From Escherichia coli (GTDB lineage Bacteria > Pseudomonadota > Gammaproteobacteria > Enterobacterales > Enterobacteriaceae), in assembly GCF_030013595.1 (NCBI RefSeq), contig NZ_CP122768.1: 64,000 nt of DNA. One strand, given 5' to 3'. Below the pieces are notes generated by a model. The model did no database searches. It was not told the DNA's origin and saw only the letters and a program-made list of their open reading frames with translations. Positions within the stretch are counted from its first letter, which is position 1. Each line of letters starts with the position of its first letter. A program made the position numbers and the translations under genes. Below, piece after piece: positions 13,620 through 14,885 of this stretch.

Positions 13620-14150
13620 ATGGCTATCACTGGCATCTTTTTCGGCAGCGACACCGGTAATACCGAAAATATCGCAAAAATGATTCAAAAACAGCTTGGT
13701 AAAGACGTTGCCGATGTCCATGACATTGCAAAAAGCAGCAAAGAAGATCTGGAAGCTTATGACATTCTGCTGCTGGGCATCCCAACCTGGTATTACGGCG
13801 AAGCGCAGTGTGACTGGGATGACTTCTTCCCGACTCTCGAAGAGATTGATTTCAACGGCAAACTGGTTGCGCTGTTTGGTTGTGGTGACCAGGAAGATTA
13901 CGCCGAATATTTCTGCGACGCATTGGGCACCATCCGCGACATCATTGAACCGCGCGGTGCAACCATCGTTGGTCACTGGCCAACTGCGGGCTACCATTTC
14001 GAAGCGTCAAAAGGTCTGGCTGATGACGACCACTTTGTCGGTCTGGCTATCGACGAAGACCGTCAGCCGGAACTGACCGCTGAACGTGTAGAAAAATGGG
14101 TTAAACAGATTTCTGAAGAGTTGCATCTCGACGAAATTCTCAATGCCTGA
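13620..14150 (+). CDS. fldA: Flavodoxin 1 (176 aa)
   Basis: ORF track 13503..14150; start at internal Met ([16 protein letters not shown]...); flavodoxin FMN-binding signature. Confidence 0.95.
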
Positions 14151-14158
14151 TGTGATGC

Positions 14159-14186
14159 GGCGTAGACTCATGTCTACGCCGTATTA
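14159..14186 (+). terminator. Hairpin downstream of fldA (weak or partial terminator)
   Basis: GGCGTAGAC-TCAT-GTCTACGCC stem-loop directly after fldA stop; weak T tract. Confidence 0.45.
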
Positions 14187-14355
14187 ATAGATAATGCCAA
14201 TCAAAATAATTGCTACAAATTTGTAACTTTTGCTGTTGTACCTGTACAATGTCCCGGTGTTCAAGTGGCCTTGCCGTTGTAAATGTAAGCTGTGCCACGT
14301 TTTTATTAACAATATTTGCCAGGGACTTGTGGTTTTCATTTAGGCGTGGCAATTC

Positions 14356-14374
14356 TATAATGATACGCATTATC
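14356..14374. promoter_or_regulatory. Fur-box-like operator (TATAATGATACGCATTATC) in the fur upstream region
   Basis: 16 of 19 match to Fur box consensus GATAATGATAATCATTATC; overlaps the uof start codon and a TATAAT hexamer. Confidence 0.55.
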
Positions 14375-14446
14375 TCAAGAGCAAATTCTGTCACTTCTCC
14401 TAATGAAGTGAACCGCTTAGTAACAGGACAGATTCCGCATGACTGA
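14360..14446 (+). CDS. uof: Upstream ORF of fur (28 codons), translationally coupled to fur
   Basis: ATG at 14360; MIRIISRANSVTSPNEVNRLVTGQIPHD; stop at 14444-14446 overlaps fur ATG at 14439. Confidence 0.65.
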   Translation: MIRIISRANSVTSPNEVNRLVTGQIPHD

Positions 14447-14885
14447 TAACAATACCGCCCTAAAGAAAGCTGGCCTGAAAGTAACGCTTCCTCGTTTAAA
14501 AATCCTGGAAGTTCTTCAGGAGCCGGACAACCATCACGTCAGTGCGGAAGATTTATACAAACGTCTGATCGATATGGGTGAAGAAATTGGTCTGGCTACG
14601 GTATATCGCGTACTGAACCAGTTTGACGATGCTGGTATCGTCACCCGCCACAATTTTGAAGGCGGTAAATCCGTATTTGAACTGACACAGCAACATCACC
14701 ACGATCACCTGATCTGCCTCGACTGCGGCAAGGTTATCGAATTTAGTGATGATTCCATCGAAGCGCGTCAGCGTGAAATTGCCGCAAAACATGGCATTCG
14801 CCTGACTAACCACAGTCTCTATCTTTACGGTCACTGTGCCGAAGGCGATTGCCGCGAAGATGAGCACGCGCACGAAGGCAAATAA
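14439..14885 (+). CDS. fur: Ferric uptake regulator Fur (148 aa)
   Basis: ORF 14439..14885; MTDNNTALKKAGLKVTLPRLKILEVL...; C-terminal HHHDHLICLDCG metal-binding region. Confidence 0.97.
   Translation: MTDNNTALKKAGLKVTLPRLKILEVLQEPDNHHVSAEDLYKRLIDMGEEIGLATVYRVLNQFDDAGIVTRHNFEGGKSVFELTQQHHHDHLICLDCGKVIEFSDDSIEARQREIAAKHGIRLTNHSLYLYGHCAEGDCREDEHAHEGK

Follow-up and report, generated by a model that had tools for sequence, protein, structure and literature searches.

In the intergenic region between fldA and fur of Escherichia coli, a single 19-mer, TATAATGATACGCATTATC, combines a Fur operator, the −10 element of a fur promoter and the start codon of the leader ORF uof. The strongest mapped fur start lies within uof, 9 nt downstream of the uof ATG, so that the mRNA made from this proximal promoter lacks the uof AUG. 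We consider it highly probable that the 19-mer is an autoregulatory Fur operator placed on the core of the proximal promoter, and that uof is carried by longer mRNAs only. The site is a good example of information packing, although every part of it has already been published. In enteric bacteria, Fur acts as the master regulator of iron, and several loops buffer its level, i.e. autorepression by Fur, activation by OxyR and SoxS, and the action of RyhB on uof.

The window (the whole 64-kb stretch of DNA that was analysed) contains the E. coli fldA–uof–fur locus, with the gene order fldA, uof, fur of K-12 MG1655. The 321 bp around the Fur box matched many complete E. coli genomes at 100% identity, the region being present in 5424 of 5426, and the RefSeq annotation under the matches reads fldA, uof ('fur leader peptide') and fur. 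The genes and the elements that frame them are as follows:

13620..14150, + strand: fldA (flavodoxin 1) CDS, the upstream neighbour (NCBIfam NF006735, 403 bits; RefSeq)
14158..14181, + strand: GC-rich 10-bp hairpin directly 3′ of the fldA stop, without a T-run (read from sequence)
14360..14446, + strand: uof, the 28-codon fur leader ORF MIRIISRANSVTSPNEVNRLVTGQIPHD (ORF list; RefSeq; NCBIfam NF011344)
14425..14428, + strand: Shine-Dalgarno-like AGGA of fur, 10 nt 5′ of the ATG (read from sequence)
14439..14885, + strand: fur CDS, 148 aa (NCBIfam NF006999, 309 bits; RefSeq)

The fldA-to-fur intergenic region comprises 288 bp. With K-12 coordinates (NC_000913.2) converted as 724308 minus the window coordinate, the window and K-12 are identical from 14189 to 14398 and differ by a single base, C14399, over 14189–14446; the fur CDS shows three synonymous-looking base differences. 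The original prediction held that the ATG at 14360 opens a 28-codon uof whose stop overlaps the fur start, and this was confirmed: the start codon occupies 14360–14362, the TGA at 14444–14446 overlaps fur codons 2–3 (fur ATG at 14439), and the peptide matches the NCBIfam model NF011344, 'fur leader peptide', over its full length (residues 1–28) with 81.3 bits, the cut-off being 71. Its further claim, that uof is the RyhB-sensitive coupling ORF of fur in K-12, agrees with published work as secondary sources describe it. According to these, Vecerek, Moll and Blasi (2007) reported translational coupling of uof and fur and its control by RyhB, and the K-12 experiments found uof to be translated and coupled to fur, and RyhB G44C45 mutants to lose regulation.

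The evidence for a genuine Fur operator comes from both the sequence and published binding data, which concern the following two features:

14356..14374, both strands: Fur box TATAATGATACGCATTATC, a 16/19 match to consensus (consensus match; published EMSA)
14348..14377, both strands: region of the fur promoter that Fur protects from DNase I (K-12 709931–709960, converted)

Compared with the consensus GATAATGATAATCATTATC, the Fur box has three mismatches (positions 1, 11 and 12), and it is the sole site with three or fewer mismatches on either strand of the whole 64-kb window. Shuffled sequences gave a chance expectation of 0.01 such sites per window, any match being obtained in 1 of 100 shuffles. 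The hexamer TATAAT (14356–14361) forms the first six bases of the box, and 5295 of 5426 complete E. coli genomes carry the same 31-mer across the box. The 16/19 match with an internal TATAAT thus reads as originally described. ATG is itself part of the Fur-box consensus (GATA-ATG-AT…), so that a canonical Fur box brings a start codon with it. The footprint tabulated by Chen et al. (2007; PMC2189734, Table 3), who cite de Lorenzo et al. (1988), is centred on the 19-mer and lies in a region identical to K-12. Moreover, in gel shifts with a 110-bp fur-promoter fragment that carries the exact box, [2Fe-2S]-Fur/holo-Fur bound, while apo-Fur gave no shift (Fontenot et al., 2023; PMC10318462). The low chance expectation, the published EMSA and the published footprint together rule out a chance match, and footprint and EMSA likewise back the proposal of an autoregulatory operator. 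The strength of this autoregulation is a different matter: fur promoter activity in glucose minimal medium changed by < 30% upon fur knock-down (PMC10505187), and Fur autoregulation of fur in vivo is reported as moderate or weak.

The TATAAT within the box was predicted as a possible −10 element, and published 5′ ends establish it as a functional one. The proximal promoter comprises, in addition to this hexamer:

14333..14338, + strand: proximal −35 TTTTCA (promoter scan 10/12, 17-bp spacer to TATAAT)
14369, + strand: proximal TSS, an A (Kim et al., 2012, TSS 709939, 46 reads)

The promoter is of the σ70 type (TTTTCA, 17 bp, TATAAT; 10/12) and is followed by a start after 7 intervening bases. 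The promoter scan by itself, with three matches against 2.2 expected, is not significant. The start was mapped by Kim et al. (2012; PMC3415461, Table S1) to K-12 position 709939, which corresponds to A14369, leaves a 70-nt 5′ UTR to fur and is preceded by a sequence ending in …TATAATGATACGCA; the 46 reads make it the strongest of four listed 5′ ends, in a library enriched for triphosphate ends with TEX, an enrichment that falls short of proving a primary 5′ end, and for a single condition, K-12 in mid-exponential growth. A start at A14369 after TATAAT argues that this hexamer functions as a real −10. Relative to A14369, the Fur box spans −13 to +6 and so overlaps the core promoter elements. 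Consistent with two classes of transcript, Sinha et al. (2018) observed two bands on Northern blots and placed Pfur within the uof ORF and Puof upstream, and Jaworska et al. (2021), drawing on EcoCyc, put two starts, +1fura and +1furb, inside uof and one, +1uof, upstream of it, with the Fur box overlapping the −10 of Pfura. Another of the ends listed by Kim et al. (2012; PMC3415461), at K-12 709876 or 14432 of the window (28 reads), is situated 7 nt before the fur ATG and downstream of AGGA; it may represent the curated 'furpb', a processing site or a near-leaderless mRNA.

A second promoter lies upstream of uof, next to a possible OxyR site:

14221..14257, + strand: distal promoter (uofp, RegulonDB 'furp1') with −35 TTGTAA at 14221–14226, −10 TACAAT at 14245–14250 and TSS G14257 (promoter scan 9/12)
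14187..14223, + strand: OxyR-site-like sequence abutting the distal −35 (14/20 specified OxyR consensus positions by hand count)

Transcripts from the distal promoter have a 103-nt leader, followed by uof and then fur, which places 182 nt before the fur ATG. Kim et al. (2012; PMC3415461) list the corresponding 5′ end at K-12 710051 (G14257; 8 reads, 103 nt before the uof ATG, with TGTACAAT just upstream) and a minor start at 710082 (A14226; 5 reads). Independent 454 data place a fur TSS at about −179, with TGTACAAT as its −10 and flagged 'Known furp1', and this distal start alone is listed for fur (Mendoza-Vargas et al., 2009; PMC2760140). In addition, Conway et al. (2014) described a ybfE–fldA–uof–fur operon that is fed by three promoters, with read-through from ybfE/fldA. 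The hairpin 3′ of fldA (14158–14181), which was not called by the terminator scan, is probably a leaky terminator or an RNA stabiliser that allows fldA–uof–fur read-through; in the alignment, a hairpin is kept at this position in other genera with differing stem sequences. Collectively, the uof start codon is carried on long mRNAs only, i.e. those from G14257, from A14226, from about −179 and from fldA/ybfE read-through. How promoter, transcript start and uof start relate had been left open in the original prediction; the published maps provide the answer, with a short mRNA that lacks the uof AUG and long mRNAs that contain uof. When the published starts were compared with position 14360, fur mRNAs were found to begin on both sides of it, the most abundant start being downstream.

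OxyR control of fur is stated in the literature, and the OxyR-site-like block beside the distal promoter (ATAGATAA…TTGCTACAAATTTGTAAC) is strongly conserved in the alignment. A weaker second Fur-box-like 19-mer, GATAATGCCAATCAAAATA (14/19), is found inside this block at 14190–14208, beside the distal −35, and in several genera that lack a good proximal box the OxyR-site-like region is the best Fur-box match 5′ of fur. CRP, too, is reportedly involved at fur, to go by the title of de Lorenzo's 1988 paper. Our best candidate for a CRP site by eye, TGTAAGCTGTGCCACG (centre at 14291.5), was dropped, its distance from both starts being non-canonical.

Taken together, these data favour the following mechanism. 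The operator 19-mer would sit on a proximal σ70 core consisting of the −35 at 14333, the −10 at 14356 and the +1 at A14369. Judged by this geometry, iron-loaded Fur at 14348–14377 would cover −13 to +6 and block RNA polymerase, which would result in mild negative autoregulation. With its ATG inside the −10 hexamer and hence upstream of the proximal start, uof could not be expressed from this ATG on the mRNA with the 70-nt leader. It would instead be expressed from the long mRNAs, which may start at G14257 beside the OxyR-like site, at the minor A14226, or further upstream at fldA/ybfE, and on which fur translation would be coupled to translation of uof, the step that RyhB represses in the published mechanism. 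Because the uof AUG is present in long mRNAs only, the three overlapping signals would act on different molecules: operator and −10 would act on DNA to govern the short transcript, and the AUG on RNA, in transcripts that read through the operator.

Among the alternatives, the one that fares best assigns Fur a different main role, namely to shift the mix of isoforms rather than to occlude a promoter: the short mRNA would be turned off, leaving Fur synthesis to long mRNAs that are sensitive to RyhB and to decoding. This is quite possible, but we doubt it. The geometry of start sites and footprint would suit such a role, as would the overall weakness of transcriptional autoregulation and the observation that the two isoforms differ in their response to RyhB (Sinha et al., 2018); however, we found no measurement of short-mRNA translation in the sources consulted. 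A structural difference between the isoforms is also predicted, as in the fold of the long mRNA the proximal −35 and spacer (14331–14349) pair with fur codons 6–11 (14455–14471) at −20.2 kcal/mol, and the 5′ arm of this long-range helix is present in long mRNAs only. Yet approximately 3% of random 30-mers from the window equal this energy, which is only marginally above background, and the leader as a whole does not fold with unusual stability (z of −0.5 to −0.8). A 12-bp core of the helix is maintained in 57 unique sequences, in which compensatory changes are absent, both arms being almost invariant and otherwise constrained. Rather unlikely, in our estimate, is that promoter choice sets the mode of fur translation, with the operator as isoform switch, stress-driven long mRNAs that need uof to open the fur start, and uof as a lineage-specific add-on. 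If this were true, the proximal mRNA would be free of both the uof AUG and the 5′ arm of the helix, and RyhB and the efficiency of decoding would both affect the long mRNAs. The question of value is what share of Fur derives from uof-less short and from uof-containing long mRNAs, and whether Fur binding shifts this balance.

We took the RyhB sequence from K-12 and predicted pairing with RNAduplex, restricting the core to the single-stranded nt 30–62; duplexes obtained with full-length RyhB ran from end to end and were uninformative. Several leader sites paired with nt 30–62 at −11 to −14 kcal/mol, none of which beats background (mean −9.8, SD 3.7). One of them resembles known RyhB targets:

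14379..14392, + strand: candidate RyhB seed target GAGCAA(AUUC)UGUC (RNAduplex with RyhB 38–47, −12.1 kcal/mol, within background)

This candidate is the GCAAUGUC motif of sodB and cysE, split by four bases, and the RyhB residues that it would contact (nt 38–47) include G44 and C45, which were mutated by Sinha et al. (2018). From this complementarity we infer that GAGCAA(AUUC)UGUC may be the seed target. In the same study, the short fur mRNA was lowered in a RyhB-dependent manner, which implies a pairing site downstream of 14369. The candidate, being downstream of 14369, would be contained in both mRNA classes and fits the RyhB-dependent loss of the short mRNA. The published RyhB–uof model has been hard to predict for others as well.

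Within the leader itself, the centroid fold revealed a local hairpin:

14391..14411, + strand: leader-RNA hairpin TCACTTC / loop of 7 / GAAGTGA, uof codons 11–18 (centroid fold)

Hairpins recur at the same place in other genera with different stems (ACTTCC/GGAAGT, GCTCC/GGAGC, CGCTCA/TGAGCG and GCCC/GGGC), and the structure is kept across Enterobacterales, including species without a uof ORF. Folded separately, 64 unique leaders gave a mean z of −1.24 for this hairpin. The consensus that RNAalifold returned for 35 leaders was limited to an invariant helix of 3 bp, as stems of different genera are misaligned. A search of Rfam found no family at the leader; two sub-threshold matches on the minus strand sit at the fur terminator. 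The only base that distinguishes the leader of the window from that of K-12, C14399, falls into the hairpin loop. It changes uof codon 14 (14399–14401), which is CCT (Pro) in the window strain, TCT (Ser) in K-12 and TTT (Phe) in a further E. coli (L004); 393 of 5426 complete E. coli genomes share the exact 31-mer with C14399 and hence the Pro14 allele. The position of C14399 in the loop suggests that the peptide sequence of uof is under little constraint. The 3′ arm of the hairpin also contains an out-of-frame mini-ORF, ATGAAGTGA (14403–14411). Separately, an AU-rich RNA hairpin AUAAUG/CAUUAU (14357–14373) that encloses the uof AUG appears in the MFE fold of the 14257–14470 RNA, as the palindromic Fur box can fold into an RNA hairpin in long transcripts.

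To determine which parts of the arrangement are conserved, we compared 80 Enterobacterales fur loci, one genome per species, from Escherichia to Erwinia, Pantoea, Hafnia and Edwardsiella. The proximal core GTTTTCA-N17-TATAATGA-ACGCA was conserved in 73 of 81 sequences, with TATAATGA located 66–105 nt before fur. Among the 72 unique sequences that were aligned, TATAATGA shows no variation, conservation is ≥ 90% for both GTTTTCA (at 17 bp) and the start-site ACGCA, and the Shine-Dalgarno region of fur, ACAGGAC, is invariant or nearly so. The distal promoter is conserved equally, TGTACAAT being invariant or nearly so in 24 other genera, while the 3′ half of the Fur box, CATTATC, is held in Escherichia, Citrobacter, Salmonella and Enterobacter only. 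Conservation of GTTTTCATTTAG extends past the need of a −35 hexamer.

The uof frame behaves differently. Among the 73 box-bearing sequences, the ATG in the box opens a uof-type frame ending at a TGA at +5 in 37; in seven the ORF runs in a different frame and yet ends at the fur-start ATGA, and in four it is in frame with fur without a stop. In the remaining 25, including Salmonella enterica arizonae, Klebsiella oxytoca, Raoultella, Atlantibacter and Pantoea, it ends upstream, after no more than four codons in Pantoea (MRRK-stop). In Salmonella and Klebsiella, the ORF opened by this ATG has 14–16 codons and stops 30–39 nt short of fur. One-nucleotide indels break the frame in S. enterica arizonae, Citrobacter sedlakii, Citrobacter sp. 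Awk 4 and Enterobacter sp. Bisph1, several of these losses being caused by indels at one alignment column in the hairpin loop, and other frame-changing indels break it in K. oxytoca and Raoultella. Since promoter and operator are kept more widely than the uof frame, the conserved unit is promoter plus operator. On the alignments, uof is a clade-restricted feature that appears to be built on an ATG supplied by the −10/Fur-box sequence, which suggests that the coupling mechanism of K-12 may not be general for the family; frame breakage elsewhere does not contradict the K-12 coupling experiments. This repeated breakage of uof under a conserved promoter and operator bears on the balance between short and long mRNAs. 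The situation in Yersinia enterocolitica fits the wider conservation of promoter and operator, as it shares the fldA–fur synteny, a Fur box in the fur promoter and a regulatory region with 86% identity, whereas uof is reported absent (Jaworska et al., 2021).

These comparisons raise the possibility that the uof ATG is incidental to the −10/Fur box (TATAATG, GATAATGAT), without a selected coding or coupling function, and that the leader matters only as RNA. Such an account would draw on the restricted occurrence of the uof-type ORF (37/73), on the frames broken by indels and the four-codon ORF of Pantoea, on the variable middle of the peptide (with Ser, Pro or Phe at codon 14 within E. coli alone), on the report of its absence in Yersinia, and on the start codon itself, upstream of which we could read no good Shine-Dalgarno sequence. 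We nevertheless consider it improbable, as it is at odds with the translation of uof, its coupling to fur and the effect of RyhB G44C45 in the K-12 experiments reported in secondary sources. Furthermore, the ORF reaches the fur start in 48 of the 73 sequences, compared with ∼30% expected for a random open frame of ∼25 codons (our own estimate, uncorrected for phylogeny), and in Kluyvera, Pluralibacter and others the insertions are of 3 nt and leave the frame intact.

It is very improbable that the A14369 end is a processing product, with TATAAT being no −10, all fur mRNA containing uof and Fur acting as a roadblock ∼100 nt past the distal promoter. In favour of this reading, one genome-wide dataset lists the distal start (about −179) alone, TEX enrichment is imperfect, and the 14432 end, 7 nt from the fur ATG, looks processed, so that the leader may well be processed. 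Against it, no other 5′ end in the library enriched for triphosphates is as abundant as A14369, which follows a perfect TATAAT by 7 nt and has a −35 at the 17-bp spacing; conservation of the −35, spacing, −10 and start motif reaches far past the range of uof; and curated databases as well as Northern blots place a promoter within uof.

The arrangement of this locus is already known: footprinting of the operator dates from 1988 and the description of uof from 2007, databases list both promoters as curated entries, and the starts stand in public tables. The window shares the −35, −10, start, footprinted region and gene order with the K-12 fur promoter-operator (de Lorenzo et al., 1988, as cited by Chen et al., 2007) and differs in no base of the operator, in one base of uof (C14399, Ser14Pro) and in three of fur. 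As far as secondary sources describe the uof–fur system of Vecerek et al. (2007), the 28-codon ORF, the stop over the fur start and the TCA at codon 6 are the same; in contrast, the window carries the Pro14 allele, and our emphasis is on the strongest start inside uof, which is visible in public data. Like thrL and ivbL, which are targeted by GcvB, uof is a small upstream ORF that sets downstream expression and is the point of action of an sRNA. However, thrL and ivbL work by transcription attenuation in amino-acid operons, whereas uof works by translational coupling and has its start codon inside a promoter and operator.

A variation on this theme was observed in Enterobacter sp. R1, Buttiauxella izardii, B. 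agrestis and Dryocola, where the ATG in TATAATGA, ∼66–69 nt upstream, is in frame with fur. As no stop intervenes, long transcripts of these species could encode an N-terminally extended Fur of 172–173 aa.
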